Shown here: piece after piece, positions 6,344-26,230 of the stretch | Numbering within the stretch: the stretch's first letter is position 1 | Layout of the letters: each line of letters starts with the position of its first letter | Assembly: GCA_014240285.1 (NCBI GenBank) | Contig: JAAZXI010000001.1 | Span: forward strand, 15,593 to 79,592 | From: Methanobacteriota archaeon | GTDB lineage: Archaea; Thermoplasmatota; Poseidoniia; Poseidoniales; Thalassarchaeaceae | Direction of reading: 5' to 3' | Length of the DNA: 64,000 nucleotides | Made by a program: the position numbers and the translations under genes | The notes under the pieces: model-generated | Databases searched by the model: none | The model's input: only the letters and a program-made list of their open reading frames with translations | Told to the model about the DNA's origin: nothing

Positions 6344-6850
6344 TTGAACGATTCGGAATCCGGGAACCCCCTTCCGAAATCAGGAATTCAGGAACGAGGC
6401 ATTATGGACGGTTTCGCACCGCTTACAGGCATGGACCTGGTCGATAAGACCGACGAGTCTGGAAAGCACATCAGCCCAGGATTGCCTGAGGGGATGAAAA
6501 ATTACCTCGTCGACATTGATGGCACTGTCGGCGAGGACGTACCCAATGAGGAAGCCCACAGAATGTCCTCCGCAGAGGCCTACCCGGATGCTATCGAGAC
6601 AATCAATGGCTGGTACGACGAGGGTCACCGGATATGCTTCTTCACGGCTAGGGTCGAGGAGCATCGAGAGGTCACCGAGGCCTGGCTGGCCGAGAAGGGG
6701 TTCCACTACCACACCTTACTGATGGGCAAACCAAGGGGAGGTAACTACCATTGGATAGACAACCACGTAGTACGGGCCACCCGTTATTCTTCGAGGTTCA
6801 CTGACCTCATCAAACGCAAGGTCGAAATCGAGGTCTTCGATGACGAGTGA
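6344..6850 (+). CDS. HAD-superfamily hydrolase/phosphatase
   Basis: HAD motif I, YLVDIDGTV. The start could instead be the internal ATG at 6404. Confidence 0.55.
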   Translation: MNDSESGNPLPKSGIQERGIMDGFAPLTGMDLVDKTDESGKHISPGLPEGMKNYLVDIDGTVGEDVPNEEAHRMSSAEAYPDAIETINGWYDEGHRICFFTARVEEHREVTEAWLAEKGFHYHTLLMGKPRGGNYHWIDNHVVRATRYSSRFTDLIKRKVEIEVFDDE

Positions 6851-8114
6851 TCCCCTGACTCCGCTGGACGAGCTTCTCAAACAACGTGAAGCGCATCTCG
6901 GAAAGGCCCTCTCCATCGCTCATGGAAAGCCCCTTCACATTACTCACGGACGCATGCAGTACTTGTTCGCTGCAGACGGCACTCGATACCTAGATCTCGT
7001 GAACAATGTATGCCATGTTGGCCACTCGAACCCCAGAGTAGTCGAGGCGGGCCAGCGTCAGATGGCTTTACTGAACACTAACACCAGATACGTCTACGAC
7101 GGCCTCACCGAGTATCTCGGCAGGCTCGCAGCAACCCTCCCCGAGAGGCTCTGCGTTGGTTTCCTAGTCAATTCAGGCAGCGAGGCCAACGAGTTGGCTG
7201 TACGTATAGCACGCGCACATACGGGTGCCCACGATATGGTGGTGGTCGAAGGCGCCTATCATGGGCACACAGGGATGCTAATCGAACTCAGTCCGTACAA
7301 ATTCAGGGGGCCGGGTGGAAAGGGGGAGCCCGAGCCATGGGTACATGTGGTTCCAATTCCGGACACCTACAGGGGTGTCGAGCGAGACTACGCAGCCGAG
7401 TTGGGTGAAATTGTAGCCGACGCTGCCCCGATTGCTGGCTTCCTAGTTGAGTCGATGCTGTCGTGCGCCGGACAAATACCGCTACCGTCCGATTACCTTC
7501 CAGCAGCTTTCGAACACGTTCGTGCAGCAGGTGGGTTGTGCATAGCCGACGAAGTCCAAGTCGGATTCGGTAGAGTTGGCACACATATGTGGGCCTTCGA
7601 GGAGCATGGGGTGGTGCCCGACATCGTGGTGATGGGCAAGCCGATGGGAAACGGACATCCGATGGCTGCGGTGTTCACAACACCTGAGATAGCAGCCTCG
7701 TTCGGGGAGATGGAATTCTTCTCGACCTTCGGTGGCAATCCCGTGTCATGCGCTGTCGGGATGGCAGTGCTCGATGCCATCGAGGAGGATGGGCTAATGC
7801 AGCGTGCCACAGAGTTGGGAGGACGTTTCATGGCAGGGCTCCGTGAGTTGCAAAAACGTCATTCAATCATCGGCGATGTCAGAGGGAGAGGACTGTTCCT
7901 CGGAATCGAGTTGGTGCGCGACCGCGAAACACAGGAGCCAGCCACCGAAGAAACAGCTAGTATTGTCGATGAGATGCGAGACAGAAATGTACTACTGAGC
8001 ACTGACGGACCGCATCACAATGTCATCAAAATCAAGCCGCCTATGGTACTCTCCAAGGAAGATGTCGACACAACTCTGCACTTACTAAACGAATCCCTCA
8101 ATCAGTCTCTTTGA
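6840..8114 (+). CDS. class III PLP-dependent aminotransferase (AGXT2 / ethanolamine-phosphate phospho-lyase-like)
   Basis: Class III AT motifs: NSGSEANE, IADEVQVGFGRVG, and the YHGHT pattern. Confidence 0.8.
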   Translation: MTSDPLTPLDELLKQREAHLGKALSIAHGKPLHITHGRMQYLFAADGTRYLDLVNNVCHVGHSNPRVVEAGQRQMALLNTNTRYVYDGLTEYLGRLAATLPERLCVGFLVNSGSEANELAVRIARAHTGAHDMVVVEGAYHGHTGMLIELSPYKFRGPGGKGEPEPWVHVVPIPDTYRGVERDYAAELGEIVADAAPIAGFLVESMLSCAGQIPLPSDYLPAAFEHVRAAGGLCIADEVQVGFGRVGTHMWAFEEHGVVPDIVVMGKPMGNGHPMAAVFTTPEIAASFGEMEFFSTFGGNPVSCAVGMAVLDAIEEDGLMQRATELGGRFMAGLRELQKRHSIIGDVRGRGLFLGIELVRDRETQEPATEETASIVDEMRDRNVLLSTDGPHHNVIKIKPPMVLSKEDVDTTLHLLNESLNQSL

Positions 8115-8140: not shown

Positions 8141-8767
8141 ATGGATTTCACCGCCTTCACACTAGTCTGCATCCCACTCTTGGTTGTGGTCAACCCTCCC
8201 GCTTCTCTCGCACTCTTCCTAACCTTAGGAAAGGATCTCGATAGGAGTGAATTGCGGACAATAGCTCGGCGTGCTTGCACATTTGCTGCTGTGGTCCTGA
8301 TGGTTTTCCTAGTATCTGGAGAAGACCTCCTTCATCACTTGGGAATAGAACTCTACAGTCTCCGTGTTGCTGGCGGTCTGATGCTCGGTATAGCAGGAAT
8401 CAATATGCTCAAAGAAGGGCAAAAACTCTCTAAGAAACAATTCTCACTTGATTCAGGAGACGAGATCTCAACTGATGAATTGATTGATTTCGGACTAGTA
8501 CCTATAGGAATGCCAATGCTCGCTGGCCCTGGTTCGATTAGTCTGATTATTCTCCTAGGAACTACCAACAGTGCACCGATGGTAGCGGGGGCAATCCTTC
8601 TAGTGATGCTGGTATCAATGCTGATATTCTATGTTGTTTCCAGCATGCAGCACGCCATAGGTGAGAACAGCACTAGAGTAATCACGCGTGTGATGGGCTT
8701 GCTCACGGTTACCATCGCAGTGCAGTACTTCTTCGATGGGTTAGAGGGCTGGTACCTCACACTTTGA
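8141..8767 (+). CDS. MarC-family (UPF0056) integral membrane protein
   Basis: About 200 aa with six TM segments and a MarC-like pattern (…LGTTNSAP…). Confidence 0.7.
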   Translation: MDFTAFTLVCIPLLVVVNPPASLALFLTLGKDLDRSELRTIARRACTFAAVVLMVFLVSGEDLLHHLGIELYSLRVAGGLMLGIAGINMLKEGQKLSKKQFSLDSGDEISTDELIDFGLVPIGMPMLAGPGSISLIILLGTTNSAPMVAGAILLVMLVSMLIFYVVSSMQHAIGENSTRVITRVMGLLTVTIAVQYFFDGLEGWYLTL

Positions 8768-8865: not shown

Positions 8866-8887
8866 CCGGCTTTAGTATTCACTAGCC
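8866..8887. repeat. 22-bp direct repeat, left copy (CCGGCTTTAGTATTCACTAGCC)
   Basis: 20 of 22 positions identical to the copy at 9829..9850. Confidence 0.6.
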
Positions 8888-8908
8888 TTATTTTCACCGT
8901 TCAGATTT

Positions 8909-9841
8909 CTAATCGGTTTTGACTCGATACGCAAATGGCACAGTCGAACCATATTTCACAAATTCATTGCTCGATGGATGCAAGAAACCGAGCGAAGTTG
9001 CATGTAAACAGATTCGGTTTAGAGGGTTCATTGTGGCCCCATGTACTATGTCGCCAACCACCGGACAGCCTAGAAATTGCATCGCCATTCGTATTTGGTG
9101 TCGGCGCCCAGTCTCTATTTTGATTTCAATCAAAGATACAAATTCATCTTGATCTTCAACTCGCCAATGCGTGATGGATTCTTTCGATCCTTTGAAGGTT
9201 GATTTGACACGTTTAACGTGCAGATGTTTGTCTTCCACAAGCCAAGATGAATCTATCCCTTCAGAATTTTTAGGTCTTCCCTCCACAAGGGCATGGTAGA
9301 CACGTTCTACATCACGTTGAGCAAATTGAGTCTGCAGAATTTCTTTAATTTCGTGATTTTTAGCAAATACCATGACCCCAGATGTATCACGGTCCAATCG
9401 ATGCACGATGTGGCACCATGCTCGCTCTGATTGGCGCTTTACATAATCCACACAGCGACTGTGTAGGGTATCATCCTCAAGCTTGTCTGTGGCGACAGAA
9501 AGTAGACCTGCTGGTTTTTCTACAACTAAAATAAAATCATCCTCGAACAGAATTTTCAATTTAGAAAATTGCCTTTTTGGCTTTGGTGGAGGTGATTTTT
9601 CCACCGCATCCGCGTGATTGATAACCTGTATTTCGTCGCCACTAACGAGCAATTCTTTGGCCCTATAAACCGGTGTTCCATTGACCAAAACTCTACCCTC
9701 TGTCAGCATTTTCCTCAATTTGGTTTTCGTCGATTGGGGGAACATCAACGCCAATGTAGGGAGTAGAAAACTCCCTTCTTTGACATTGAATTCCATATTG
9801 GGACCCCTCAGTCTGATTCTCAGGGCATCCGGCTTTAGCAT
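8909..9841 (-). CDS. RluA/RluD-family pseudouridine synthase with S4 domain
   Basis: HRLDRDTSG catalytic motif plus an N-terminal S4-like segment. The ORF is visibly AT-richer than its flanks. Confidence 0.8.
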   Translation of the reverse strand: MLKPDALRIRLRGPNMEFNVKEGSFLLPTLALMFPQSTKTKLRKMLTEGRVLVNGTPVYRAKELLVSGDEIQVINHADAVEKSPPPKPKRQFSKLKILFEDDFILVVEKPAGLLSVATDKLEDDTLHSRCVDYVKRQSERAWCHIVHRLDRDTSGVMVFAKNHEIKEILQTQFAQRDVERVYHALVEGRPKNSEGIDSSWLVEDKHLHVKRVKSTFKGSKESITHWRVEDQDEFVSLIEIKIETGRRHQIRMAMQFLGCPVVGDIVHGATMNPLNRICLHATSLGFLHPSSNEFVKYGSTVPFAYRVKTD

Positions 9842-9850
9842 TCACTAGTC
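9829..9850. repeat. 22-bp direct repeat, right copy (CCGGCTTTAGCATTCACTAGTC)
   Basis: It overlaps the stop of the esterase gene and the ATG of the RluA gene. Confidence 0.6.
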
Positions 9851-12019
9851 ATCATCGGCTCGTTGCCAGCCCAACCAACGCCGAACAGAGTCTGTGGTAG
9901 CCACCATGATGAACAGAGCTACCACTATGCCGCCTAGAAGCATCAGCGTGCGATCAACCTCCTCCTCCCACCGAGCGGCATCATTCGGGTAGAAGTCAAC
10001 ATTATCTCCAAACCCATCTCCATCAGAGTCCATCGTCTCATTAGGATCCAGGGGAAAAGCATCACTGTTGTCACCGACCCCATCTTCATCTGTGTCTAAC
10101 CATTCGTCTGCGTCGGAGGGAAACACGTCCATATTATCCCCAAACCCATCTCCATCAGAGTCTATCCATTCATTGGGGTCCTCTAGGAACGCGTCGGAGT
10201 TGTCGCCAACACCGTCTTCATCTGTGTCCAGCCATTCAGAAGCGTCTTCGGGAAAAGCGTCGGAATTGTCTCCAACACCATCCTCATCAAAATCGGACCA
10301 TTCCGAAGCATCTTGGGGAAACACATCACCGTTGTCACCGACCCCATCGAGATCACTGTCTACGGTCTCCAAATTATCATCCGGAAAAGCATCAGCATTG
10401 TCACCGACACCGTCTTCATCACTATCGTCCCACTCGCTTGCGTCCATCGGGAATTGATCGTCGACATCGGGGGCGCCGTCGCCGTCATCATCATTGTCCA
10501 CTACATCGCACTGCGAATCTCCGTCGCTGTCCACCGGAACCTCATCGGAATCCATCGGGTCAGTCAGGCAACTCGACTCGTCTGCGTCCGTCCACCCATC
10601 ATTATCGTCATCATTGTCAGCGTTGTCGCCAATCCCATCATTGTCGTTGTCTGAGTGCTCGGAAGCATCCAAACGAAAAGCATCCTCTGAATCCATCCAA
10701 CCGTCGTTGTCATCATCATCATCACTGTTGTCGCCGAAACCATCGCCGTCAGTGTCCACCCATTCATAGGGGTTCAAGGGAAAAGCATCCTCTGAATCCA
10801 TCCAACCGTCGTTGTCGTCATCTGGGTCGGAGTTGTCCCCCATTCCATCACCATCTGTGTCCTCCCACTCCATCGGATCACTTGGGAAAACATCCGAATT
10901 GTCCCCCACTCCATCACCATCTGTGTCCTCCCACTCCGTCGGATCACTTGGGAAAACATCCGAGTTATCTCCCACCAAATCGCCATCGGAATCGGCCCAC
11001 TCGTTCGGGTTGTAGATGAAGGCATCAACATCATCTCGGTAGTCGTCACCATCGGAATCGCGCACGAAGTCCTCTAGCGCCCACTCTAGTGACAGATTAG
11101 CCCACCCCGGGGCATTCATCGAGGGCGCGTGGCTGCCCCCGTTAATTCTCCAGTGCGACACCCTGTTGCCGTCGGCGCAGTTCAGATGCTCAAGCTCATC
11201 GGTCTCTGCAACATCATCAGAGCCGGTGATGTCGATGCTGCCGAGGTTTGTCCAACTCGCATCGCATCCCGATCTATCTGCCCAATACTCTGTTGATTCT
11301 GGTGCTGAAGGGTATGCCCCTCCCGTCAAGGTGCCTCCGTTGTACTGTATGACGCTGTCAGCTGTGCCGTGGACGTGCAGGATGTTTGGACTCCCTGTGT
11401 TCGGGCAGTCGTTTGAGAAATCCTCCCAAGTCGCTCCGTTTAGAGACACGATTGACTCGATGATACCACCCCTTTCACAAGCCATCCTGTGACTCATGAA
11501 AGCACCGTTGGAGTGCCCAATCAGTACCACACCCTCGGGGTCCGCCCCATAATTAAGGACAGCCTGATCAATCAGACTCTCGAGGAAACTCACATCGTCC
11601 ACCGAGGTCCCGAACAGGTTACAGCAGGCATTGGTAGCATTCCAGTACCGCATGGCTATGATATTCGAGGTACCGTCAGGGGTGATTAGAAGATGCTCAT
11701 TTTCGTGGACGCTGTCATACAAACTCATCCACGCGGCGTTGAGTGAGCCCCAACTAGAGTAACCATGCAAGGAGATGACCAGCGGCAACGGTCGGTCGTA
11801 AACGTGCCCCCCTGGCATAATCAGGGTGGCCGACCTGCCTTGCGAGGAAATCGTGGTAGTAGTGTGTTCATCGGTGTAGTTGATAGGGCCATAGCCATCG
11901 TTTGAGTCGGCCCATCGCCTATCTTCAGCCCCCCAAATCCCCTCCAGCTCGGAGCCAAATAACCCGGTCGCCACCAGCATCATGCAGACGAGAACCGGTG
12001 CGTAGAAGCGGGTGCTCAC
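9845..12019 (-). CDS. secreted alpha/beta-hydrolase (PHB-depolymerase/esterase-like) with about 18 thrombospondin type-3 Ca-binding repeats and a C-terminal TM anchor
   Basis: GHSNG nucleophile elbow, a long DxDxDGxGDNxD repeat array, and a C-terminal TM. The six-frame ORF (to 12289) runs through tRNA-Leu. The true start is therefore downstream of 12078; I placed it at about 12019 (V91 as a GTG start) or 11983 (M103). Confidence 0.7.
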   Translation of the reverse strand: MSTRFYAPVLVCMMLVATGLFGSELEGIWGAEDRRWADSNDGYGPINYTDEHTTTTISSQGRSATLIMPGGHVYDRPLPLVISLHGYSSWGSLNAAWMSLYDSVHENEHLLITPDGTSNIIAMRYWNATNACCNLFGTSVDDVSFLESLIDQAVLNYGADPEGVVLIGHSNGAFMSHRMACERGGIIESIVSLNGATWEDFSNDCPNTGSPNILHVHGTADSVIQYNGGTLTGGAYPSAPESTEYWADRSGCDASWTNLGSIDITGSDDVAETDELEHLNCADGNRVSHWRINGGSHAPSMNAPGWANLSLEWALEDFVRDSDGDDYRDDVDAFIYNPNEWADSDGDLVGDNSDVFPSDPTEWEDTDGDGVGDNSDVFPSDPMEWEDTDGDGMGDNSDPDDDNDGWMDSEDAFPLNPYEWVDTDGDGFGDNSDDDDDNDGWMDSEDAFRLDASEHSDNDNDGIGDNADNDDDNDGWTDADESSCLTDPMDSDEVPVDSDGDSQCDVVDNDDDGDGAPDVDDQFPMDASEWDDSDEDGVGDNADAFPDDNLETVDSDLDGVGDNGDVFPQDASEWSDFDEDGVGDNSDAFPEDASEWLDTDEDGVGDNSDAFLEDPNEWIDSDGDGFGDNMDVFPSDADEWLDTDEDGVGDNSDAFPLDPNETMDSDGDGFGDNVDFYPNDAARWEEEVDRTLMLLGGIVVALFIMVATTDSVRRWLGWQRADDD
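9920..11060. repeat. intragenic tandem repeats encoding the TSP3 motifs
   Basis: Periodic units of about 54-57 bp. They produce many spurious overlapping ORFs on both strands. Confidence 0.6.
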
Positions 12020-12077
12020 ACACTCTTCCTCCCGCACGCTGCTAAGAAACTGCCTCAGCAGCGCGTTTGTCAGTAGG

Positions 12078-12162
12078 TGGTGCAGAGGACAGGATTTGAA
12101 CCTGCGAAGCACTACGCACTGGGACCTCATCCCAGCCCCTTTGACCACTCGGGTACCTCTGC
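12078..12162 (-). tRNA. tRNA-Leu (anticodon GAG), long variable arm, CCA encoded
   Basis: Manual fold: acceptor GCAGAGG/CCTCTGC, anticodon loop ATGAGGT, variable arm TGCGTAGTGCTTCGCA, T-arm GGTTCAAATCC. Length 85 nt. Confidence 0.85.
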
Positions 12163-12215
12163 TTGCAGCATTAGCGAGACACCCGGCGTATATCAGAATG
12201 GCGAAGCGCCACCAC

Positions 12216-13082
12216 TCAGAAATCGAGCCCGTACTTCTGAGCCAACGGAGGCGACTCTCCAGTCTTGGCGAAGTAGTACAAAGAGACACGATTCACTGCT
12301 TCGCATGCACTGAAGAACAGAACGGAGATGGCTATTCCAGCGAACATAACCAAGATTCCCAACCCGCTTCCAATTTCCCCCAGTGCGAACAGTGGTAGAC
12401 AGATTACCACAATCAGTAGACAAACCAAGATGTTGATTATTCCAGTTCCAGTCGTCGAAACCACATCCTCCCCCCAAGTCTGCTTGAACAATTCCGGACT
12501 CTTCGACATACTCTCGCCAACGCCAATATTATCCAACACGATCATTGGAACGACGAAGAACGTCGCAATCCACCAAGCGACCTGTACGATGAAGGAGGCG
12601 ATGTGTCCGAATATACTCACTACAAGATTGTCCGATTGTTGCATACTTTGGAAGGCCGTTATAATCAAACCAACCGTACCTGAGATTAACCCCCATATGA
12701 CAATCTGGGGCAGGCACTTCATTGCCTGCTTAATACCATATGAAAAACTTGGATTTGTTCCAGCAGTCAGTCTCTCATGGGCGCTTGCGATTATAGCCGC
12801 GTTCCAGAATACAGTGATTATCGCTATTACCATGTAACTAAGGAAAGCGCCCACATAGACTCCACTCTCAGCACCTTCTTCACCTCCGACGAAGAATCCT
12901 AGGCCACCGGTTAGCGCCAAAATAGTAATTGCAGCAATAATTGAGAATATTCCTGAGAACAGCATGTAGGCCATGAGTTCGGGATCGGCTCTAACCACAT
13001 GCATCCCTAGTTTGGTTACCCTCCAGCCACGCCCTATTCTTGCTCTGAAACCCATCTTGGGCCCCTCACTTCTCATCATCAT
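12216..13082 (-). CDS. polytopic membrane protein, function unknown
   Basis: Six or more TM helices. Low GC. Confidence 0.5.
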   Translation of the reverse strand: MMMRSEGPKMGFRARIGRGWRVTKLGMHVVRADPELMAYMLFSGIFSIIAAITILALTGGLGFFVGGEEGAESGVYVGAFLSYMVIAIITVFWNAAIIASAHERLTAGTNPSFSYGIKQAMKCLPQIVIWGLISGTVGLIITAFQSMQQSDNLVVSIFGHIASFIVQVAWWIATFFVVPMIVLDNIGVGESMSKSPELFKQTWGEDVVSTTGTGIINILVCLLIVVICLPLFALGEIGSGLGILVMFAGIAISVLFFSACEAVNRVSLYYFAKTGESPPLAQKYGLDF

Positions 13083-13122
13083 ACCGTCGCCTGTATGGCC
13101 CCTACCTTCAAGATTGACCCGG

Positions 13123-13590
13123 TTATTCGAAGCTTACAGCATCACCAGGGATAACCACACCTTCGTCGACTACTGATGCGAGCCATCTGGACCAACCCAT
13201 CTCCAAATTGTGATCAATTCTGGAGAATTTCTGTTCTTTGAACGATTCACTAATCACACTACAAGGAGCACACGGCTCACTCAATTCAATAATCGCTCCT
13301 CCAACCTTGAACTTCATTCCCACTTTGAGAGTGGGCCAGTCAAGACCTTCGATTGTCAAGTTCTCGCCAGTAGATCCAATTTCGATAGGATGTCCCTCCC
13401 TCTGCAGATCATATATTCTTTCCAGAGAGAAAATACAAACTGCTCGTCCCGCATCATTATTCCTTTTCTCAGTACGGAACCTATTGTAATCCCCTTCGAC
13501 TCCATCAAGCCGTAGAGTTGCTGCCCTAACTGGTAGTTTAGGTACACCTCCATCACCTCGTACGTTCACGGAATGGACAATAGCGTTCAA
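13123..13590 (-). CDS. MOSC-domain protein
   Basis: Segment GENLTIEGLD…ELSEPCAPC is typical of MOSC. Confidence 0.65.
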   Translation of the reverse strand: MNAIVHSVNVRGDGGVPKLPVRAATLRLDGVEGDYNRFRTEKRNNDAGRAVCIFSLERIYDLQREGHPIEIGSTGENLTIEGLDWPTLKVGMKFKVGGAIIELSEPCAPCSVISESFKEQKFSRIDHNLEMGWSRWLASVVDEGVVIPGDAVSFE

Positions 13591-13654
13591 TCGAATGACC
13601 CCATGAAGTCCAACTCGATTTCAAGTCTATCAACCATTTCGAGGCTGCGAACCT

Positions 13655-14701
13655 TCAGAATGGCAACGACTTATCCAACCGATCGACCATTTCCAGATAT
13701 CGATTGGTGTGTTCTGTTCCAGGCACATTAACCACGAATTGCCAATAACGCCAGGCTGCGACTGCTAGGACCGCATAGCGATGCAGATCAGGAAGGGCTG
13801 TATGTTCTGCATCTGTCAATGGTCGAACTGACTGGTATCCGGCCAACAACGCATCCCACAATTCAGGAACTGGAAAACCACCCTTCCAGCCAAACCCAAC
13901 ATAGGTTGTCGCAAGATCCATCGCGAACGATTCTATACAGATTTCCTCAAAATCAAGTAGGGCGAGAACCTCCCCCTTCCGCCCAATCACATTGTCAGGG
14001 TACAGATCACCATGGATAATGCCACAGGGAAGGTCCTTCGAAATTCTTTGTTTGAGAAGATGTGTCTCCTCCTCCAGCATCTGTAGGAATGGCGTCATTG
14101 AATCCTCCTTCCGCGCATCTTTGACAAGCTTCTCCCAGAGGACATATCCAATCGAGAACGTGGTAGGAATGCTTTCATGAATTGGAACCCCATGCAACTG
14201 TGCCTGCGTCTTACCGAGTTCGTAGAGTGATGCAGTATCTGAGGGCAGCCAACCACCGTCGATATACGGCATCAACATCCACGCTAGATTATCCTTGACA
14301 AGCATCCATTCATTCTCTCCCAGTAGCAACGGGACAGGTGTCGGTACGCCGTGATCTGCGAGCCAACATGTATGCTTGATTAGCAGCTCCACTTCATCTG
14401 GAGACCTTTCATCCCAGATCTTCAGAACAAGCTGTGAGCCATCATTTAGGGTTAGTAGATAATTCGAATTTGCCCACCCCCCAGTAAGTGGCTGCATCTT
14501 ACTCAGTGGTGCCACTCCAGCAGCTGTCAACAGCCATGACGCATCTTCCACAGTGACATCGGTATACGCCATCAAGCCACCTTCACCGTTGGAGTTCATC
14601 ACTGATGACAATCGAGTACAGTCTCCCACCATCTCCGAGAGAGACCCCGACTGCCATGCAGAAACGTCAGCACGAGCACATATTGCTTCATCGGTCATCA
14701 T
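13655..14701 (-). CDS. APH/ChoK-family phosphotransferase (aminoglycoside/homoserine-kinase-like)
   Basis: GIIHGDLYPDNV (HGD catalytic loop) and DFEE motif. Confidence 0.65.
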   Translation of the reverse strand: MMTDEAICARADVSAWQSGSLSEMVGDCTRLSSVMNSNGEGGLMAYTDVTVEDASWLLTAAGVAPLSKMQPLTGGWANSNYLLTLNDGSQLVLKIWDERSPDEVELLIKHTCWLADHGVPTPVPLLLGENEWMLVKDNLAWMLMPYIDGGWLPSDTASLYELGKTQAQLHGVPIHESIPTTFSIGYVLWEKLVKDARKEDSMTPFLQMLEEETHLLKQRISKDLPCGIIHGDLYPDNVIGRKGEVLALLDFEEICIESFAMDLATTYVGFGWKGGFPVPELWDALLAGYQSVRPLTDAEHTALPDLHRYAVLAVAAWRYWQFVVNVPGTEHTNRYLEMVDRLDKSLPF

Positions 14702-14805
14702 TTTCTCTCAAATAACTCCAACCACTCTCGGCATACTTTTCATACAGGCACTCGGGGCCGCGGATATACAGACTGCGATATGCGACTCTGGTTGAGGAAG
14801 AGAAG

Positions 14806-15483
14806 ATGAAACCAATCTTGAGGAACCTATACCAGTTCATCAGGGACGCGGCCCATGTGCTCTTGCATGGAAATCTCGATTCTTCGGACTATATCATACT
14901 CGACGATAAAGAAGTCGTTTTCGCGAGCGTTGCCAAATCTGCGTGCACATCCATCAAGACCTCCATTGCGGAGGAGCCCCCCAATAGTCCTACGATACAC
15001 AAACACATCAGAGAGTTTTCACACAAGAGAATCCCTAAGGACAAACACTCTTACTTCGTTTTCACTTATGTCAGAAATCCATATGAGAGACTTGCTTCGT
15101 GCTACCGCAGTAAATTCAATCTTGAAGATAAATCAAAGTTTCTCTATAGCCACTATTTGTTCGGATATATGGGTAATAATGACACATTCGAGGAATTTGT
15201 CCGGAAAGTATCGAAAATCCCCGACTTCATGTGCGATCGCCACTTCAAGTCCCAGCACAGCATCATCTTCTCCAGCGGCGCAAAAGTCGATTATGTAGGC
15301 AAGGTTGAGGAATTACCTTCGGACTTCGAAGAGATTCGTCAGCGCTACGGATTCAGCGAACTCAAGGTCTTGAACAAATCTCAGGGGAAAAGCGCCGAGA
15401 TGCTCCTCACCGATGAGATTAGAGAACTAATTTACAACCGATTTAAGAAAGACTTTGAGACATTTGGATATGAAAAAGAATAA
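14806..15483 (+). CDS. carbohydrate sulfotransferase (Sulfotransfer_2 / CHST-like)
   Basis: 5'-PSB VAKSACTS, 3'-PB FTYVRNPYERLASCY, C-terminal DFETFGY. Very AT-rich codon usage. Confidence 0.75.
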   Translation: MKPILRNLYQFIRDAAHVLLHGNLDSSDYIILDDKEVVFASVAKSACTSIKTSIAEEPPNSPTIHKHIREFSHKRIPKDKHSYFVFTYVRNPYERLASCYRSKFNLEDKSKFLYSHYLFGYMGNNDTFEEFVRKVSKIPDFMCDRHFKSQHSIIFSSGAKVDYVGKVEELPSDFEEIRQRYGFSELKVLNKSQGKSAEMLLTDEIRELIYNRFKKDFETFGYEKE

Positions 15484-15572
15484 TCCTCAATTATTCAAAG
15501 AAGAAGTTTCGGACCTCATATTGCTTCTTCTCTCCGGTTAGGACTTAACATATCCTCAGCCACGCAACCCGC

Positions 15573-16514
15573 ATGCGCGCCATCCTTCCACAGCCAAACC
15601 TGCTCATTGTCGGGGCCCCGAAATCCGGAACTACGTCCCTTCTGATGTGGCTCAGAAGCCACCCAGAGGTCTACCACCCGTGGTTTGGAGCCGGACCTGA
15701 GGCCGTCGAGAGCGGATTCCTAATAGCAGGACCCACCGATATCCCCATTTCACCATCTAGGCCGAGAGGAACACTTCTGTTACCACATGATACCGACGTC
15801 GATCGCTACAAAGGGGAACCTTGGGTAATAGACAAATCCCCGCAGCACCTGTACTCAAGACGGGCGTTGGAGACCGTGCGTGATTTGATGCCTGACGCAA
15901 AGGTCATCATAGCCCTCAGAGACCCCTACGATCTTCTAATCAGTCAATATATGCAAATGTGGAAGGGCGTGAATTTTGACACCCCATTCGAGGAGCTGTA
16001 CGAAAAGATGCAGTCCCAAGGATGGGAGGCCAACACTGAGATTGCAGAGACCTGGGCCTTTCTCACATATCCCCGGTATTCCGAATTTGTTCGTGCATGG
16101 GTATCCGAACTTGGCTCCGACAGGGTGAGGGTTGTGAGGCTGGCCTCAATCGCAGGTAATGCATCAGGTGTGCTTCGGGAAATTTCTGAGTGGCTGGAAA
16201 TTAGCCCGAGTAAGATGCCTAGCAATCCCACGGCGAGGAACACTAGGGGAAAACTATCCAACTCTCCGATTAGAAAGTTCCTGAGGGAACCTCCCAAATG
16301 GGTGTTTACCTCTGCTAGGCTGCTGTTACCTAGCAGATCCGCTAGGAAGGCGCTCCTAGATCCAATTAGGAGGAGGGGGTGGAAGCACATTCCAGCGGAC
16401 AAGCCCGAGATCCCGCCAGAAATGGAGAGCGAAATCAGAGCGAGGCTGAAGGAGGATACCGAATTCTTCGAGGCACTCGATTCGCATTTACCCAGTGGCA
16501 CAATGATTGGCTAG
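15573..16514 (+). CDS. PAPS-dependent sulfotransferase
   Basis: 5'-PSB GAPKSGTTSL; 3'-PB IIALRDP. Confidence 0.7.
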   Translation: MRAILPQPNLLIVGAPKSGTTSLLMWLRSHPEVYHPWFGAGPEAVESGFLIAGPTDIPISPSRPRGTLLLPHDTDVDRYKGEPWVIDKSPQHLYSRRALETVRDLMPDAKVIIALRDPYDLLISQYMQMWKGVNFDTPFEELYEKMQSQGWEANTEIAETWAFLTYPRYSEFVRAWVSELGSDRVRVVRLASIAGNASGVLREISEWLEISPSKMPSNPTARNTRGKLSNSPIRKFLREPPKWVFTSARLLLPSRSARKALLDPIRRRGWKHIPADKPEIPPEMESEIRARLKEDTEFFEALDSHLPSGTMIG

Positions 16515-17428
16515 CGTTCGAACGATTCCAACCAATGACCGGTCGAGAATCCGGTTAGTTCCTCAAACTTCTCTAAGTCAGGCACAACCTCTCCTTCACA
16601 GATTTGATAGTGCCCCTTAGTCAGTAACGAATCCTCCCCCTTCCTACTTATGAGGGGGAGGTCATAGATGTTCAGAGATCGTTTCTGTAGGGGCTTCGCA
16701 AGCACATCCCTTACTGACTTTGGAAGTATGCGTACTGCGGATTTGAAGACCCTTCCCAAGGTAGTGGCCCCCCTCCTTCCTTGTGAGGTGTTCGCATTCT
16801 TCTGAGACAGGTAATCGTATTCGAATTTTCCTAGACCGAAATGAGAATTGATTTCCCCGAGGACAACATCGGGCGCAGTTCTCATTTTCTTACTATCGAT
16901 AATCAGAAAACTCTCTCTTTCAAATCCCTCCAACCAGCGAGCCATTGAGGCTGACCAGACTGAATCGTCCTTCAGCCTCTGGTCTCCCCACGCGGTCTCG
17001 AAGTCGGACCAATCTGCTCCATGCCTACGGTCTGCCATGTTGTCCCGGACCATCTTCCAATGACTGAAAGCCCTCTCAATTGGCTCCCTTAGGCAAATCA
17101 CAAAACGGGCTCCAGGGTTGATCTGGAGCACCCTGTTTGGGGCCAAGGGGCAGGAAAACGCATGTACCGAACCATCGACTCTGAAACCATTGCCTGAGAA
17201 AGCCCGTCCATATTCATCTAGATCCGGGTCGGATGCGTCTCTCCCAAAGGTTCCATGATGACTGGCCAAGATATTAGGCTCCTTGGGGGAAGAGAAGTCA
17301 ACACTGGGATTCTGTGAAAGGACTCCCGCTAGCCAAGTCGTACCACACTTTGGCAGACCAAGCAGGAAGCCGTCCACCAGAGGCCTTTCTTCCACACATG
17401 CATACTTCCCCGAGCGCTTATGAGTCAA
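16511..17428 (-). CDS. PAPS-dependent sulfotransferase
   Basis: 5'-PSB GLPKCGTTWL; 3'-PB ICLREPIERAFS. There is a 4-bp overlap with the upstream GT2 gene. Confidence 0.7.
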   Translation of the reverse strand: MTHKRSGKYACVEERPLVDGFLLGLPKCGTTWLAGVLSQNPSVDFSSPKEPNILASHHGTFGRDASDPDLDEYGRAFSGNGFRVDGSVHAFSCPLAPNRVLQINPGARFVICLREPIERAFSHWKMVRDNMADRRHGADWSDFETAWGDQRLKDDSVWSASMARWLEGFERESFLIIDSKKMRTAPDVVLGEINSHFGLGKFEYDYLSQKNANTSQGRRGATTLGRVFKSAVRILPKSVRDVLAKPLQKRSLNIYDLPLISRKGEDSLLTKGHYQICEGEVVPDLEKFEELTGFSTGHWLESFER

Positions 17429-18258
17429 TCGGGCCTTTCTATCGAATGTCTGGGCGCTACCGGCTCATCTTTCACAACTCTCCTCACCGCCCAGAAGATT
17501 GCGAGTAGCCAGGCCCTTGTCCACAGCGACCACGATTGGGTAGATGTTAGTGGCTTCACATCTCCCGGCTTGTGAACCGATCTCATCTCTTTTCTGAGTT
17601 TTCTAAGGTCACCATTCATCACACTTCTTCTAGAAATCATTCCGGCCCCACATTCGACAAACTTCTTGGGATTGCAATGGTAGAGAAGTTGCTCAGAACG
17701 AGGGTAGGCACCGTAGACCGCTCCGTGGATTCCTATTGGTTCGGGATGGTGGACCTTGCACTGAGGCGCCCAGGCCATCTCCTGCCCTGCATCGATTATC
17801 CTCCAAGCAAGATCGGTGTCCTCTCGGTGCAGAAAGTACCTCTCGTCAAACCCCCCAATCTGCTCTAGCACATCCCTTCTGACCGCCATGTTTGCGGTCT
17901 TGAAACGGTCCCACTTGAGCCGGTTTGGAGGATCAAAATCGATTATTTTACCATCTTGTCCAGTGGTACTAATGCTACCCTCAATTCCTCCCAAATCATG
18001 ATTCTGAAACACTTCTTGGATGTTCTCAATCCAAGACTCATCAGCGATACAATCGTCATCGATGAATGCGACGTACTTCGCAGAACCTCTCCGCCAACCG
18101 ATGTTTCGGGATATCCCAGGCCCTTGATCCAATTCCGAATCATCCACTACCTCGATAGATTTCGCCAACAGGGTTTGCCTTTCTAAAGAGGCCAAACACG
18201 ACGCCAACGCCTCGGGCCTTCTGAAGGTAGGAATCACCACATCTACTTCCGAATTCAC
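17425..18258 (-). CDS. family 2 glycosyltransferase
   Basis: VVIPTFRRPE…IDDDC (GT2 DxD region). Confidence 0.75.
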   Translation of the reverse strand: MNSEVDVVIPTFRRPEALASCLASLERQTLLAKSIEVVDDSELDQGPGISRNIGWRRGSAKYVAFIDDDCIADESWIENIQEVFQNHDLGGIEGSISTTGQDGKIIDFDPPNRLKWDRFKTANMAVRRDVLEQIGGFDERYFLHREDTDLAWRIIDAGQEMAWAPQCKVHHPEPIGIHGAVYGAYPRSEQLLYHCNPKKFVECGAGMISRRSVMNGDLRKLRKEMRSVHKPGDVKPLTSTQSWSLWTRAWLLAIFWAVRRVVKDEPVAPRHSIERPD

Positions 18259-18286
18259 AGCTCTTGCAGACGTTCTGTGGTAATTA

Positions 18287-18655
18287 GTGTCGCGTACAAT
18301 TCAAGAATCGGTAGTGTCACCCAAGGGCATGGTCAACCTAGCCGCGCCGGTTCTCGGAGGATTTCAAGATTCTTTGGATACTGCTTTCGGAGTAACAGCT
18401 GGGTGGTGGGTCGGGCACCTGCTCGTAGTCGGCATACTGGCTCTCAGCGTGGTCGCGCTACAGAACCGACATCACATCACCAACCATTCCGGATTCGGGC
18501 GCAGCACGCTGATGGACGCATCCGCGACACTTGCTCTCACAGCCGTCCAATACAGCGTTTTCACCGGCTCTTTCGGGTGGCCCGATGGAATATCTCTTTC
18601 TCTATCGATAATCTGCACTCTGGCACTCAGGTGGCACGTGCTAATCGTCGAATGA
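18287..18655 (+). CDS. small membrane protein (hypothetical)
   Basis: TM-like stretches. An alternative frame (18277..18693) is Arg-rich junk. Confidence 0.3.
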   Translation: MSRTIQESVVSPKGMVNLAAPVLGGFQDSLDTAFGVTAGWWVGHLLVVGILALSVVALQNRHHITNHSGFGRSTLMDASATLALTAVQYSVFTGSFGWPDGISLSLSIICTLALRWHVLIVE

Positions 18656-19594
18656 AGTCCTTCTACGCCTCACCAGGACAACAGCAACGGTGAGCACCAG
18701 CACCACGATCACCCCACCGATGATGATTGGTGCCTCGTCTGAGTACTCTCCGAAGACTGAGTTGTTGCCAGTAAGGTCGATGGTACCGATTCCGATACTC
18801 TTCGGCTCGACTTTAACATCAATCGCATTGGTGCTGGGACATGATTTTGGCTCTGACCCATCATCCTCGAGCACTATAATGCAACCCTCCCATGTGGTTC
18901 CGAGGTTTGATGGGGTGGCTATTTGGAACTGACAGTTCTTTGAGGAATCACTAGATTGAATCGCAATGTTGCAGGGTGCACTTTGATCAACGAAACCAGA
19001 CGGCCAAGAAGAAACTCCGTCATCATTAATCATCACAGCACGGTATTTGATCGAGGAACCCTCATTACTTGTGCAAGAAATAGAAGTTGAGAACACAATC
19101 ACTTCTCCAGCCTCTACTGTACCTCCTCCTTGTCCAAGATTATGGGTACAACTCGTGAACTCAGCAACGATAATCGTGACTTCCACGGATTCGGGCGAAG
19201 TGATGAAACTCACATCCACTCCACTGGCTTGAGTTACTTGGGCGGTAACATTGGCTACATAGGATCCCGAACTATGGCCTAGATCACCTCGAAAAATTAC
19301 CTCAAACCCCATTTCTGAATTTGCAGGAACAGTCATGCTACCAGGTGCGGCGTAAGCGAAACCACCACTTTGTACAGTAATATCAACTTCCTCAGGATGC
19401 ACTGAGGGATTCTCCAACATGCAGTTTGAAATGGCAGTTCTAGTCGAACCAGGAGACACGTCCATCTCAGGCGGATCATCGCAGGAAATGCTAATCTCGG
19501 GGAAAATTCCGGTTTGAGCTGAAATCGTTGGCATGCACCCTACCAATAACCCCATGAGGAGTACTAATACGAGCACAATAACCCTTCTTGACAC
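18641..19594 (-). CDS. secreted cell-surface protein with C-terminal TM anchor and many N-glycosylation sequons
   Basis: Signal peptide, several N-x-S/T sequons, and a C-terminal TM followed by RRRR. Confidence 0.5.
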   Translation of the reverse strand: MSRRVIVLVLVLLMGLLVGCMPTISAQTGIFPEISISCDDPPEMDVSPGSTRTAISNCMLENPSVHPEEVDITVQSGGFAYAAPGSMTVPANSEMGFEVIFRGDLGHSSGSYVANVTAQVTQASGVDVSFITSPESVEVTIIVAEFTSCTHNLGQGGGTVEAGEVIVFSTSISCTSNEGSSIKYRAVMINDDGVSSWPSGFVDQSAPCNIAIQSSDSSKNCQFQIATPSNLGTTWEGCIIVLEDDGSEPKSCPSTNAIDVKVEPKSIGIGTIDLTGNNSVFGEYSDEAPIIIGGVIVVLVLTVAVVLVRRRRTSFDD

Positions 19595-19701: not shown

Positions 19702-21273
19702 ATGAGCGAGGGTGCGGCCAAGCCTCCTGTCGAAATTGTCAAGCCGGAGACAAATGTCACCAGCGGCACCGATGTCCAAGACAAGCTAATCAGCGCGGCC
19801 CGTGTCTTCTCGGACCTCCTGAAACCGACTTTCGGGCCACGCGGACTCGACAAGATGCTGTACAAGACGGACGGCACCACTGCAGTCACCAACGACGGCG
19901 CCAAGATAGTCGCCGAGTTGATGGTGAAGCACCCTGCTGCCAAAATGATGGTCTCGATGGGAAACTCTCAGGAGGAGGCGTGTGGTGACGGCGTCACCAC
20001 CACCATGCTGCTGTGTGGTTCTCTGCTCCAGGAGGCCAGCAATCTACTGCGCAAAGGTCTGCACCCACTAACTCTAGTCGACGGCTACCGCTCGGCACTC
20101 ATCGCAGCCGTCGGGCAGATGAACCAAGACACCCATAGTGTGAGTGATGCACGCCTTGCTGCAGTTGCCGAGACGGCACTGCGTGGCAAGGGCGCGGAAG
20201 CAGCGCTAGACCACTTCTCCCCAATCATAACTGACGCTCTGAGCATACTCGCCGCCAACCGCAACGATGCCGGTGCCGAGCATGTGGCGATGTTCAAGAC
20301 CGGCACTGGTGGGTTGCGCGATTCCCGACTCATCCGAGGTGTCGTGGTCAACCGCCGTGTCTTGATGGACAGCCTGCCGAACCGACTGAACGATGCCAAG
20401 GTGGCGGTGCTCGGAGGCGATCTGAAAATTCGATCAATGACTCGCGACGTCGAGATTCAAATCACCAACGCTGATCAACTCGACTCCTTTGTTGACGCCG
20501 AACAAGCCCGCAAGCAGGCACTTGCAGACGCGGTAATCGCCAGCGGAGCTGGCGTGGTACTATGCACGGGCGAGGTTGACCGAGACATCCTGCATCATCT
20601 GGCAGAAGCCGAGGTGCTCGCGGTGGGAGAACTAGATGAGTCGGAAATTCGCAACGCGGCAGACTCGGTAGGGGCCAACATCGTCGAGTCAATACTCGAC
20701 ATCGAAACCGCGGACCTCGGAGTTTGTGGTTCGTTGGTTTGGGAACGTCGCGAAGCTTCGGACCAAGTCGAGGACATCATCAGAATCGACGATTGCCCCA
20801 ATCCGAGAGTAGTCACTATCGAAGTCGGCGGAGGTGGCGATACCGGCACTGAGGAGATCATCCGTGGACTGCATGATGCTCTGAGAGCGACCTCACTGGC
20901 TCTCGCTGTCGGCGAGCTGCTGCCTGGCGCTGGTTCAATCCATGCCCGTATGGCCCACGCTGTTCGACGTGCCTCTGAGGCCGAACCAGGCCGGGCGAGA
21001 CTGGCTATGGATGCCTACGCCCGCGCCCTCGAAACAATTCCAGCGGCCTTGGTCGAGAACTCCGGTGGCGATGCGCTGGATCAGATTCTCGAGCTGAGAG
21101 CCGCTGCGAGGGAGGACGGCGACTTCGTCGGAATCACCCCCGAGGGAGTAGTGGGGTCGGCAGAGGGAGTATGGCATCCAAGGGCTGTCATCGAGGACGG
21201 TCTGGAGTCAGCGACCGAGACCGCTATGAGCATGCTCAGGATAGACCAAGTCATCTCCGCGAGAGGCGACTAG
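19702..21273 (+). CDS. ths: thermosome / group II chaperonin (Cpn60/TCP-1 family), divergent
   Basis: GPRGLDKML (compare GPKGMDKML), GDGVTTT, and a C-terminal equatorial domain. Start taken at the internal ATG at 19702 (MSEGAAK...). Confidence 0.8.
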   Translation: MSEGAAKPPVEIVKPETNVTSGTDVQDKLISAARVFSDLLKPTFGPRGLDKMLYKTDGTTAVTNDGAKIVAELMVKHPAAKMMVSMGNSQEEACGDGVTTTMLLCGSLLQEASNLLRKGLHPLTLVDGYRSALIAAVGQMNQDTHSVSDARLAAVAETALRGKGAEAALDHFSPIITDALSILAANRNDAGAEHVAMFKTGTGGLRDSRLIRGVVVNRRVLMDSLPNRLNDAKVAVLGGDLKIRSMTRDVEIQITNADQLDSFVDAEQARKQALADAVIASGAGVVLCTGEVDRDILHHLAEAEVLAVGELDESEIRNAADSVGANIVESILDIETADLGVCGSLVWERREASDQVEDIIRIDDCPNPRVVTIEVGGGGDTGTEEIIRGLHDALRATSLALAVGELLPGAGSIHARMAHAVRRASEAEPGRARLAMDAYARALETIPAALVENSGGDALDQILELRAAAREDGDFVGITPEGVVGSAEGVWHPRAVIEDGLESATETAMSMLRIDQVISARGD

Positions 21274-25038: not shown

Positions 25039-25671
25039 ATGAGCGAAGGCTTCGTTCTCCCCAGATCCGGGTCGGAAGCCAATCCAGTTAGACTGGCAGT
25101 GCTGGTCTCCGGTGGTGGATCAGGACTCGCAGCGCTGCTCAGGTACCAGCGGGCCCAGCGTTGCCACCGCACCGTGCTCGTACTCGCGGACAAGGTCGAC
25201 GCCGGTGGCCTACAACACGGCCGCGACGCTGGCGTCAGAAGCATCGGAGTACCTCTGCCGATGAATCTGGATAAGTCCGAGCGGCGAGAGGCCCATGAAC
25301 GGCTCGTGAATGCGGAACTGGAGGCCGCGGAGGTTGAACTCGTGGTGCTCAGTGGTTACATGCGTATTCTCACACCATGGTTCGTCAGGCGCTGGAAGGG
25401 TCGACTGGTCAATATCCATCCCTCATTGCTGCCCAACTTCCCAGGAGCCCACGCCCACCGCGATGCCTTGGCGGCCGGGGCGAGCGTCACGGGGTGCACG
25501 GTGCACTTGGTGGATGAGGGGGTGGACTCGGGGCCGATACTCGCGCAGCGCGAGATTGAGGTGTTGCCCGGAGATGACGAGGAGGCCCTGCAGGAACGAA
25601 TCAAGCTGGAGGAGCATGTGCTCTACCCCGAAGTGCTCGACCGACTCTGCTCGGGGCGAATATCACTCTAG
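25039..25671 (+). CDS. purN: phosphoribosylglycinamide formyltransferase
   Basis: LAVLVSGGGSG, NIHPSLLP, HLVDEGVDSGPIL. Confidence 0.85.
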   Translation: MSEGFVLPRSGSEANPVRLAVLVSGGGSGLAALLRYQRAQRCHRTVLVLADKVDAGGLQHGRDAGVRSIGVPLPMNLDKSERREAHERLVNAELEAAEVELVVLSGYMRILTPWFVRRWKGRLVNIHPSLLPNFPGAHAHRDALAAGASVTGCTVHLVDEGVDSGPILAQREIEVLPGDDEEALQERIKLEEHVLYPEVLDRLCSGRISL

Positions 25672-26226
25672 GTCGGCAGGCGTGTTGACGTTGCGCAGGA
25701 GAGAAGAGTCCTCAAGCATCAGTGAGTGCTCCATCTCCGAGAACTGGACGTGCAGTGGTCTACGGTCACCTTTCTTCAGCCGTCCTACCACCATCTCCGG
25801 GCGGACCAGTGCCAGTAGTGGGTGCGCCCACAACCCGTCGCTTGGCATTGCGAGACAATCCGAGGGCCCTAGTGCACCCTCTAGCCCGGCGAACAGCGCA
25901 GAGTTCACCCAAGGAACATCGACTGGGGCAAGTTGCAAGGTCTCCCCGACTACCAATGGGTCCTCAAAGGCCTCGATTAGTGCCTCGATTGGACCCGAAT
26001 GGGGCTCGGCATCCAGCACCCACTCGACTTGGATTGTGGTGTCGATGACCGCACCGTATCGTTCAATGTCCTCGGGTCCGGCGACGGCGATTCTGATTGG
26101 CTCACGACCCGCCTCCGCCAGAGCCATCGCAACCCGGGAGATGCAGGCCTCGCCATCGACTTCCAGTAGTGCCTTGTCGCGACCCATGCGCGACGAGCGG
26201 CCCCCAGCTAGAAGCAGCGCCCGCAT
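25663..26226 (-). CDS. mobA: molybdenum cofactor guanylyltransferase
   Basis: LLAGGRSSRMGRDKALL. Confidence 0.7.
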   Translation of the reverse strand: MRALLLAGGRSSRMGRDKALLEVDGEACISRVAMALAEAGREPIRIAVAGPEDIERYGAVIDTTIQVEWVLDAEPHSGPIEALIEAFEDPLVVGETLQLAPVDVPWVNSALFAGLEGALGPSDCLAMPSDGLWAHPLLALVRPEMVVGRLKKGDRRPLHVQFSEMEHSLMLEDSSLLRNVNTPADLE

Positions 26227-26230
26227 GCCA

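Follow-up and report, generated by a model that had tools for sequence, protein, structure and literature searches.

Marine Group II archaea are uncultured and count among the most abundant planktonic archaea. The DNA considered here, a stretch of 64,000 nucleotides referred to below as the window, belongs to a Marine Group IIb (MGIIb) archaeon, Candidatus Thalassarchaeum (Thalassarchaeaceae, Poseidoniales). Between a tRNA-Leu(GAG) gene and the gene for a thermosome subunit it carries three sulfotransferases of the type that uses 3'-phosphoadenosine 5'-phosphosulfate (PAPS), and one glycosyltransferase. The interval between these two landmarks is probably a recombination hot region of MGIIb, with a slot that takes up glycan-decoration genes from a pool common to the family. 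The slot is a small, sulfotransferase-dominated glycan island of the flexible, replacement type, set within the wider mosaic interval from tRNA-Leu to the thermosome gene; islands of this type are well known. The original prediction for this DNA was a horizontally acquired, AT-richer sulfation island that occupies 12163–18660 and abuts the tRNA; comparison with relatives bears out its genes and redraws its borders and origin. The features of the interval are as follows.

12078–12162, minus strand: tRNA-Leu(GAG), called by ARAGORN; left landmark, its 5' end (12162) facing the variable interval
12216–13082, minus strand: DUF6159 polytopic membrane protein (Pfam PF19656, 3e-20)
13123–13590, minus strand: MOSC-domain protein (Pfam PF03473; GC content at third codon positions, GC3, 0.39)
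13655–14599, minus strand: APH-family kinase, homoserine-kinase-type-II-like (Pfam PF01636, 6e-30; PDB 2ppq, 2e-26)
14621–18327, unstranded: replaceable cassette occupying the slot, ∼3.7 kb, with ST_A, ST_B, ST_C and GT2 and including both divergent promoter regions
14806–15483, plus strand: ST_A, Sulfotransfer_2-family PAPS-type sulfotransferase (PF03567, 63.9 bits, cut-off 22)
15573–16514, plus strand: ST_B, Sulfotransfer_3/1 PAPS-type sulfotransferase (PF13469, 64.1 bits, cut-off 27; PF00685, 36.8 bits, cut-off 22)
16511–17428, minus strand: ST_C, Sulfotransfer_1/3 PAPS-type sulfotransferase (PF13469, 34.8 bits, and PF00685, 31.3 bits; cut-offs 27 and 22)
17425–18258, minus strand: GT2 glycosyltransferase (PF00535, 53.8 bits, cut-off 23.3, 3e-14; DDD motif)
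18329–18655, plus strand: c0, a hydrophobic open reading frame (ORF) of 108 amino acids without a Pfam family; right edge of the slot
18641–19594, minus strand: choice-of-anchor-T surface protein, or anchor-T (NCBIfam NF041740, 8e-31, above cut-off)
19702–21273, plus strand: thermosome subunit, the conserved right anchor (Pfam Cpn60_TCP1, from the annotations of neighbouring contigs)

A variable slot in a conserved gene order

Related loci were collected with the thermosome gene as the anchor: regions of ±10 kb were taken from 80 GTDB species representatives, the proteins and tRNAs of the window were mapped onto them, and a metagenome scan brought the sample to 160 loci in all. Across the 80 GTDB loci a fixed order recurs down to 61% thermosome identity: (esterase/TSP3), tRNA-Leu(GAG), (DUF6159), MOSC, (APH), slot, c0, anchor-T, thermosome, PurH. 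The slot is the interval between APH or MOSC and c0 and measures 1.5–6 kb; this placement, between APH/MOSC and c0/anchor-T/thermosome, was seen in 46 loci from GTDB and in over 50 from metagenomes.

A census by ORF clustering and Pfam of the 46 species-level GTDB loci with a defined slot revealed about 16 gene families in 21 architectures, and only a single empty slot. A glycosyltransferase is present in 34 of the 46 loci, at least one sulfotransferase in 26 and at least two in 19. PAPS-dependent sulfotransferases had been described as rare in archaea, a statement that fails for this lineage on the count of this slot alone. The commonest slot family is that of the ST_B/ST_C-like Sulfotransfer_1/3 enzymes, with 29 ORFs; further sulfotransferases of the Sulfotransfer_3, _1, _2 and _4 families, two GT4 families, one GT2 family, methyltransferases and some unknowns share the slot. 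The gene combination of the window is seen in none of the 46 GTDB loci (0/46) and occurs in metagenome contigs.

Replacement of the slot content is apparent among close relatives. The DNA homology of the window with its closest reference relatives (L005, L006) ends at position 14620 and restarts at 18328, and in these loci a single GT4 lies in between. GT4 is likewise the only occupant in 15 metagenome contigs with a thermosome identity of 90–93%, and a single GT4 is found in about 20 loci of that range when GTDB and metagenome are taken together. The cassette of the window (from 14632/14643 to 18937) is shared by L001, L002, L088, L089 and L090 at 96–99.7% DNA identity. Three of these contigs (L001, L088, L090) encode an APH that is merely 49% identical, with positions 13645–14642 unalignable, and in cassette-sharing contigs the N-terminal two-thirds of anchor-T (18938–19584) have diverged. 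The same cassette is in this way set in differing backbones: L001 and L088 carry it at 96–100% identity next to an APH at 49%, and L088 is devoid of DUF6159. The same cassette is found also in L096, which is 99.5% identical to the window in DNA over 7 kb.

A different set of three sulfotransferases is harboured by L097 and L098, whose thermosome is 97% identical in amino acids and whose flanks are 92–94% identical in DNA: a Sulfotransfer_2 enzyme (70% to ST_A), a Sulfotransfer_1 enzyme (45% to ST_C) and a Sulfotransfer_4 enzyme, accompanied by a chimeric GT2. The GT2 gene is itself a mosaic that changes over near 17785; from there onward, through the half that encodes the N-terminal, donor-binding part, L097 and L098 share the window sequence at 92–94% DNA identity, and the C-terminal half differs. 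Another relative, L099 (thermosome 94%), has an ST_C at 69% and a GT2 at 91%. Overall, homology breaks off sharply at 14620/14643, 18328 and 18937, and these breakpoints sit at gene boundaries or within genes, inside flanks that are otherwise homologous. The anticipated variation of a glycan-modification module among close relatives is thus borne out, relatives at 90–97% holding GT4 or other sets, and comparison with related genomes confines it to about 14621–18327, the genes on the tRNA side being syntenic.

As DUF6159, MOSC and APH recur in order across the family, they are therefore backbone and no acquired island. An island abutting tRNA-Leu does not exist in that form: the stretch from 12216 to about 14600 is syntenic down to 61% thermosome identity. 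The tRNA itself, correctly placed at 12078–12162 by the original prediction and assigned by ARAGORN to the minus strand, is found at this site in over 40 related loci; its orientation is backed by the T-arm sequence on the low-coordinate side. DUF6159 is an accessory gene, a gene-sized indel between tRNA-Leu and MOSC that is carried by L006, L007 and L009 and missing from L005, L010, L049 and L088; in L088 the segment 12217–13084 is precisely deleted between flanks of 90–96% identity. MOSC adjoins tRNA-Leu in nearly all loci, and at this conserved position its alleles are deeply divergent, with classes of 82–95%, 63–70% and 48–49% identity at a thermosome identity of at least 90%. APH, likewise part of the backbone, occurs as two deep alleles. 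Both genes reassort among relatives at 90–93%, as L106, L109 and L112 pair a MOSC of 48–49% with an APH of 87–91%. The window-type MOSC and APH alleles are GC-poor in L005 and L006 (0.48–0.50); the alternative alleles in L007 and L009 are at background (0.58). The start of APH is probably at 14599 or 14572 rather than at 14701, since the extension to 14701 consists of cassette-side DNA. A homoserine kinase match of APH in NCBIfam is below cut-off. APH and MOSC were considered as members of the sulfation module and rejected, both being conserved whatever the cassette.

On the opposite side of the slot, c0 was found before anchor-T as a called ORF in 31 of the 46 loci, and tblastn located it in most of the metagenome loci. 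Its reading frame shares 15 nt with the 3' end of anchor-T. The anchor-T protein displays a signal peptide with a lipobox-like Cys and a C-terminal transmembrane anchor. Its N-terminal two-thirds are hypervariable, the protein being 51–57% identical where the thermosome is 90–93% identical; DNA homology ends at 18937 in every comparison, and the C-terminal anchor region is conserved.

Evidence of lateral exchange comes from a 76-kb contig, L093, whose thermosome and PurH are 72% and 76% identical to those of the window. Its slot, in the same position, encodes an ST_B at 91%, an ST_C at 85% and a GT2 at 74% identity, and the flanking proteins are at 52% (MOSC), 51% (DUF6159), 49% (c0) and 34% (anchor-T). 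Vertical descent cannot yield sulfotransferases at 91 and 85% alongside a thermosome at 72%. ST_A has homologues in 64 database clusters at an identity of at least 56%, and every cluster with a named source belongs to Thalassarchaeaceae, Poseidoniales or Thermoplasmatota; a gap follows, the next homologues being at 43% or below, where the named matches are bacterial. A comparable gap was observed for ST_C. Taken together, homologues at or above 52–56% are marine and, where named, from Marine Group II (MGII) or Thermoplasmatota. Orthologues of ST_A on long contigs occupy the same slot. A search of IMG/VR for relatives of ST_C found no viral carriers. Judging from these sequence relationships, the donors of the cassette appear to be other MGIIb archaea and the exchange to take place within the group. 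Of the horizontal acquisition first proposed, the lateral exchange is upheld and the foreign donor is not, the source-named close homologues being from MGII and Thermoplasmatota.

The simplest mechanism can be sketched from the breakpoints. Cassettes would move by homologous recombination in the conserved flanks, with no site-specific integration, and would be drawn from a pool in which four Pfam families of PAPS-type sulfotransferases are joined by GT4 and GT2 enzymes, methyltransferases and a few unknowns. The tracts, being of variable length, would carry along divergent, often lower-GC alleles of MOSC, APH and the anchor-T N-terminus; the divergent flank alleles would therefore be hitch-hikers. 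They may be likened to gnd, which hitch-hikes beside the O-antigen locus of Escherichia coli.

Base composition and the tRNA boundary

The predicted dip in guanine-plus-cytosine (GC) content is real: segment 12163–18660 has a GC of 0.497, against 0.582 for 19595–64000, where no 6.5-kb segment falls below 0.562. Its two-part character is equally confirmed, with 0.474 in 12216–15500 and 0.518 in 15573–18258, and the cassette (14621–18327) stands at 0.500. Relative to a background of 42 genes (GC 0.581±0.019, GC3 0.661±0.043), all genes within 12.2–19.6 kb deviate, with z values from -1.8 to -7.6 for GC; the gene-level z values for the predicted dip range from -2.5 to -7.6 for GC and from -1.6 to -6.2 for GC3. 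Background GC returns at the thermosome gene (0.59).

The AT-rich DNA does not, as had been supposed, start at the tRNA. On its far side GC is as low or lower, with 0.48 (z -5.3) in MarC (8141–8767) and 0.44 (z -7.5) in RluA (8909–9841), so that the low-GC span extends over 8.1–19.6 kb on both sides of tRNA-Leu. An unannotated ORF at 4782–5477 is also GC-poor (z -4.2), and the tetranucleotide likeness to background is lowered across ∼1–20 kb of the window. Profiling of GC and tetranucleotides thus substantiates the atypical composition and contradicts its restriction to 12163–18660. The sulfation genes are thus not alone in their low GC. Nor can the direction of transfer be inferred from it, as donor-like and recipient backgrounds are both ∼0.58–0.60 and cassettes ∼0.50. 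The case is a caution for island calling: 'low GC beside tRNA' misled here, and the true boundaries came only from relatives.

The far side of the tRNA holds a second flexible spot. Segment 8141–9841, with MarC, tRNA-Ala(CGC) and an RluA-type pseudouridine synthase, has the lowest GC of all (0.46). RluA (8886–9804) is precisely missing in L088, with flanks 94–98% identical, and MarC and RluA are both missing in L009 and L123.

These data bear on the idea of one horizontally acquired island at 12163–18660, brought in from a foreign lower-GC donor by integrase-type insertion at tRNA-Leu. The fall in GC directly after the tRNA and the variable presence among close relatives of DUF6159, which adjoins it, speak for such an event. 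Against it, MOSC and APH follow tRNA-Leu(GAG) family-wide, down to 61% thermosome identity, and relatives do not show the tRNA joined to the distal flank without the whole block, since MOSC and APH follow it in most of them. No integrase domain was detected by Pfam or NCBIfam in any ORF of 8.1–21.3 kb, and a search of 8–20 kb turned up neither an att-type repeat of the tRNA sequence nor a directly repeated copy of its end. Integrative elements use the 3' end of tRNA genes; the variable block here adjoins the 5' end of the minus-strand tRNA-Leu. The low GC of MarC and RluA beyond the tRNA and the MGII archaeal identity of the nearest sulfotransferase homologues, separated by a gap from bacteria, point the same way. 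A tRNA-inserted element is not supported, and an acquisition of this kind is scarcely credible.

A further possibility is that the composition is a local property, due to relaxed codon bias and amino-acid composition, and that the genes were inherited vertically with differential loss. In its favour, slot genes are lower in GC than thermosome and PurH in most lineages, whichever cassette is present; the conserved RluA is GC-poor too (0.42–0.43 in L006 and L007); and the contrast may be exaggerated by the high expression of thermosome and PurH. Differential loss, however, cannot yield an ST_B at 91% and an ST_C at 85% between lineages whose thermosomes are 72% identical, and it leaves unexplained both the non-homologous cassettes between flanks of 92–99% identity and the gap of ∼0.10 in GC between MOSC/APH alleles of close relatives. 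The pairwise identities already point to multiple transfers. As an account of the locus, vertical inheritance with differential loss is very improbable.

The sulfotransferases and their predicted products

The glycan-modification module exists as described, with its GT2 and its three sulfotransferases of the PAPS type, and the assignments of the membrane protein, MOSC, APH, sulfotransferases and GT2 all correspond to Pfam matches above the gathering score. The cassette genes form two convergent pairs that have promoter regions of their own; ST_C converges with ST_B and shares 4 nt with GT2 at the stop of the latter. The residues expected for PAPS binding are conserved on alignment in all three enzymes. 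In ST_A, whose fold matches PAPS sulfotransferases, K44, R90, P92, R95, S98 and H146 are invariant in 37 sequences. ST_B matches PDB 3rnl at 3e-15 and the heparan-sulfate 3-O-sulfotransferase (3-OST) 3-OST-3 at 7e-07, with PKxGT and RDPxxRxxS aligned, and ST_C aligns to PDB 3rnl, NDST and 3-OST. The 5'-phosphosulfate-binding (5'-PSB) loop PKxGT[TS] reads GAPKSGTT (K17) in ST_B and GLPKCGTT (K27) in ST_C; it is in register with 3rnl, 3-OST-3 and NST, and its G, P, K, G, T and T are at least 90% conserved among 29 slot homologues. The 3'-phosphate-binding (3'-PB) motif reads LRDPYDLLIS (R116, S124) and LREPIERAFS (R114, S122), its Arg and Ser being conserved in at least 90% of the same homologues. 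GT2 contains an Asp-rich DxD donor-binding motif within ...YVAFIDDDCIADE... and, as read from the sequence, a C-terminal hydrophobic helix; its NCBIfam matches (EpsD, MftF, AglG-like) are all below cut-off.

PAPS-synthesis genes were said to be absent from the window, and a Pfam scan of its ORFs of at least 100 amino acids (non-overlapping, longest first) indeed found no APS kinase, ATP sulfurylase or PAPS reductase; motif expressions for APS kinase, ATP sulfurylase, CysD and CysH matched nowhere in its six frames. Metagenome-assembled genomes of MGIIb have been reported to carry prevalent cysDN and cysC, and hence to be able to make PAPS, these genes being absent in Marine Group IIa (MGIIa) (Orellana et al. 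2019, PMC6864105). The reported genes lift the objection over PAPS supply at the level of the family. A literature search on cysH/sir in MGIIb and on glycosylation islands in MGII returned nothing specific beyond that study.

An N-terminal signal sequence was read in none of ST_A, ST_B, ST_C and GT2, and cytoplasmic action is therefore expected of the four products. From family membership, GT2 would extend a lipid-linked oligosaccharide by a sugar, and the three sulfotransferases would esterify distinct hydroxyls with PAPS supplied by cysDN/cysC from another part of the genome; export would then bring the sulfated glycan to surface proteins or to another envelope glycoconjugate. The most likely role predicted for the cassette is to sulfate, in the cytoplasm, a lipid-linked glycan bound for the envelope, and sulfated surface glycans may be inferred as its product. 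Swapping sulfotransferase sets would change the surface sulfation pattern, and one may speculate that recognition by viruses or grazers likely selects for such change.

Other acceptors deserve consideration. The cassette might be mobile in the manner outlined and yet act on membrane lipids, on small metabolites or osmolytes, or on tyrosines of a surface protein. This proposal draws on the failure to find an oligosaccharyltransferase or flippase nearby and on the scarcity of sequons in the adjacent surface protein. Set against it are the company of the slot sulfotransferases, usually GT2/GT4 and sugar-type methyltransferases; the best matches of ST_B and ST_C after 3rnl, which are carbohydrate sulfotransferases (heparan-sulfate 3-OST, NDST); and the affiliation of ST_A to Sulfotransfer_2, the carbohydrate sulfotransferase family of Pfam. 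Non-glycan acceptors are on balance unlikely.

Several points weigh against a recombining slot for glycan sulfation as set out above. Anchor-T, predicted to be rich in N-glycosylation sequons, has only 2 N-X-S/T sites in 317 amino acids, where shuffled sequences average 2.5. Genes for AglB/STT3, a flippase or the dolichol pathway are absent from the Pfam matches of window ORFs of at least 100 amino acids. PAPS synthesis in the host is presumed from a literature report on the family. A conserved Asp (D87 in ST_B, D85 in ST_C) aligns where the EKxP of 3-OST and NST has the catalytic Glu; catalysis with Asp as the base would be plausible, the base being Glu in heparan-sulfate 3-OST and NST and His in cytosolic SULTs. 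Relaxed codon selection, and not origin, could in part account for the low GC of the slot genes. The breakpoints that suggest the recombination mechanism come from a handful of contigs, and contigs assembled from metagenomes can be chimeras.

A bolder proposal, put forward tentatively and with less than even confidence, is that the slot may be a 'sulfotype' locus, in which MGIIb cells would wear coats of sulfated glycans whose pattern is re-coded between strains by swapping PAPS-type sulfotransferases. If true, MGIIb cysDN/cysC, hitherto read as assimilatory sulfate reduction, would mainly feed surface sulfation, Archaea would have their first glycan-sulfation system of the PAPS type, and the locus would become a candidate for what determines susceptibility to viruses or attachment to particles. 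Surface sulfation would also give a concrete function to the difference between MGIIb and MGIIa in reported PAPS synthesis. The locus offers candidate glycan sulfotransferases of the classical type, which are uncharacterised in archaeal studies, and a single, easily recognised locus, from MOSC/APH to thermosome, makes surface diversity tractable in metagenomes.

Neighbouring genes and comparison with known systems

The host assignment agrees with the closest named relatives of the thermosome (19702–21273), which are Candidatus Thalassarchaeum and Marine Group II metagenome-assembled genomes at 90–92% identity. The remainder of the window consists of archaeal housekeeping genes, including PolD DP2, the large subunit of primase, enolase, deoxyhypusine synthase and Nre. 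The 814-aa ORF called at 9845–12289 (minus strand) is over-called at its 5' end and reads through tRNA-Leu; the true product is a secreted protein in which an esterase (Abhydrolase_2) precedes Asp-rich repeats of thrombospondin-type-3-like character, encoded by tandem units of 66 nt (9995–11023). A class-III 'aminotransferase' (6840–8114, plus strand) shows close homology to ethanolamine-phosphate phospho-lyase (PDB 6tor, 1e-129), and in MGIIb loci of the O1 clade (L039, L045, L048, L050, L051, L062, L073) its orthologue adjoins APH and MOSC. This arrangement suggests that kinase and phospho-lyase are a catabolic pair for an amino alcohol, split here by ∼5.5 kb of variable DNA.

Elsewhere, a 665-aa ORF with an Eco57I-type restriction-modification methylase domain lies amid housekeeping genes (40538–42535, minus strand). 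The S-adenosylmethionine synthetase at 47616–48884 (plus strand) is of the bacterial/eukaryotic MetK type (PF00438, PF02772, PF02773), not the archaeal MAT. The tRNA-Ile(GAT) at 35741–35822 (minus strand) is unusual in its length of 82 nt and in having the anticodon at position 40, and may contain an intron or a 5' extension. In segment 25000–26460 the sole long ORF (25310–26248, plus strand) has a GC of 0.73 at second codon positions and no Pfam match, and is probably in the wrong frame.

Set beside known systems, the locus resembles tRNA-linked integrative islands in tRNA adjacency, atypical composition and variable content. It differs from them in lacking an integrase and an att repeat, in lying on the 5' side of the tRNA and in having conserved backbone nearest to it.

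The only experimentally defined archaeal N-glycan sulfotransferases are Agl30 and Agl31 of Halobacterium salinarum (VNG1056C, VNG1057C), whose sulfation is reported to take place on the dolichol-phosphate-bound glycan at the cytoplasmic side (PMC11980604). As in that system, the window has at least two distinct enzymes, which would each sulfate a different sugar of one glycan, clustered with glycosylation genes. Agl30 and Agl31, however, belong to the alkaline-phosphatase/sulfatase-like superfamily, whereas the window enzymes are Sulfotransfer_1/2/3 proteins with no match to the sulfatase family, and the window has no aglB. The parallel is one of logic only, as the window enzymes lie outside that family.

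Closer in type are the heparan-sulfate 3-OST, NDST and 2-O-/6-O-sulfotransferases and the bacterial 3rnl protein of Alicyclobacillus, with which the 5'-PSB (PKxGT[TS]) and 3'-PB (RxPxxRxxS) motifs align. Identity to these enzymes is 11–21%, and ST_B and ST_C have Asp for the catalytic Glu of 3-OST. The window enzymes are predicted to be cytoplasmic and soluble, whereas the heparan-sulfate enzymes are type-II membrane proteins of the Golgi.

The nearest counterparts of the slot are replacement-type islands, which include the O-antigen (rfb) loci of Enterobacteria and the 'glycotype' or metagenomic islands of marine bacteria and Haloquadratum. In common with such glycan islands, the slot has a fixed position, conserved flanks, non-homologous sets of the same class swapped for one another, lower GC and no integrase; it shares with them, too, breakpoints in the flanks and divergent flank alleles that hitch-hike. 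It is set apart by its uncultured MGIIb host, by a small cargo of 1–5 genes and by a hypervariable surface-protein gene in the same hot region. The cargo, moreover, consists here mostly of PAPS-type sulfotransferases and not of genes for sugar-nucleotide synthesis, polymerase or flippase.

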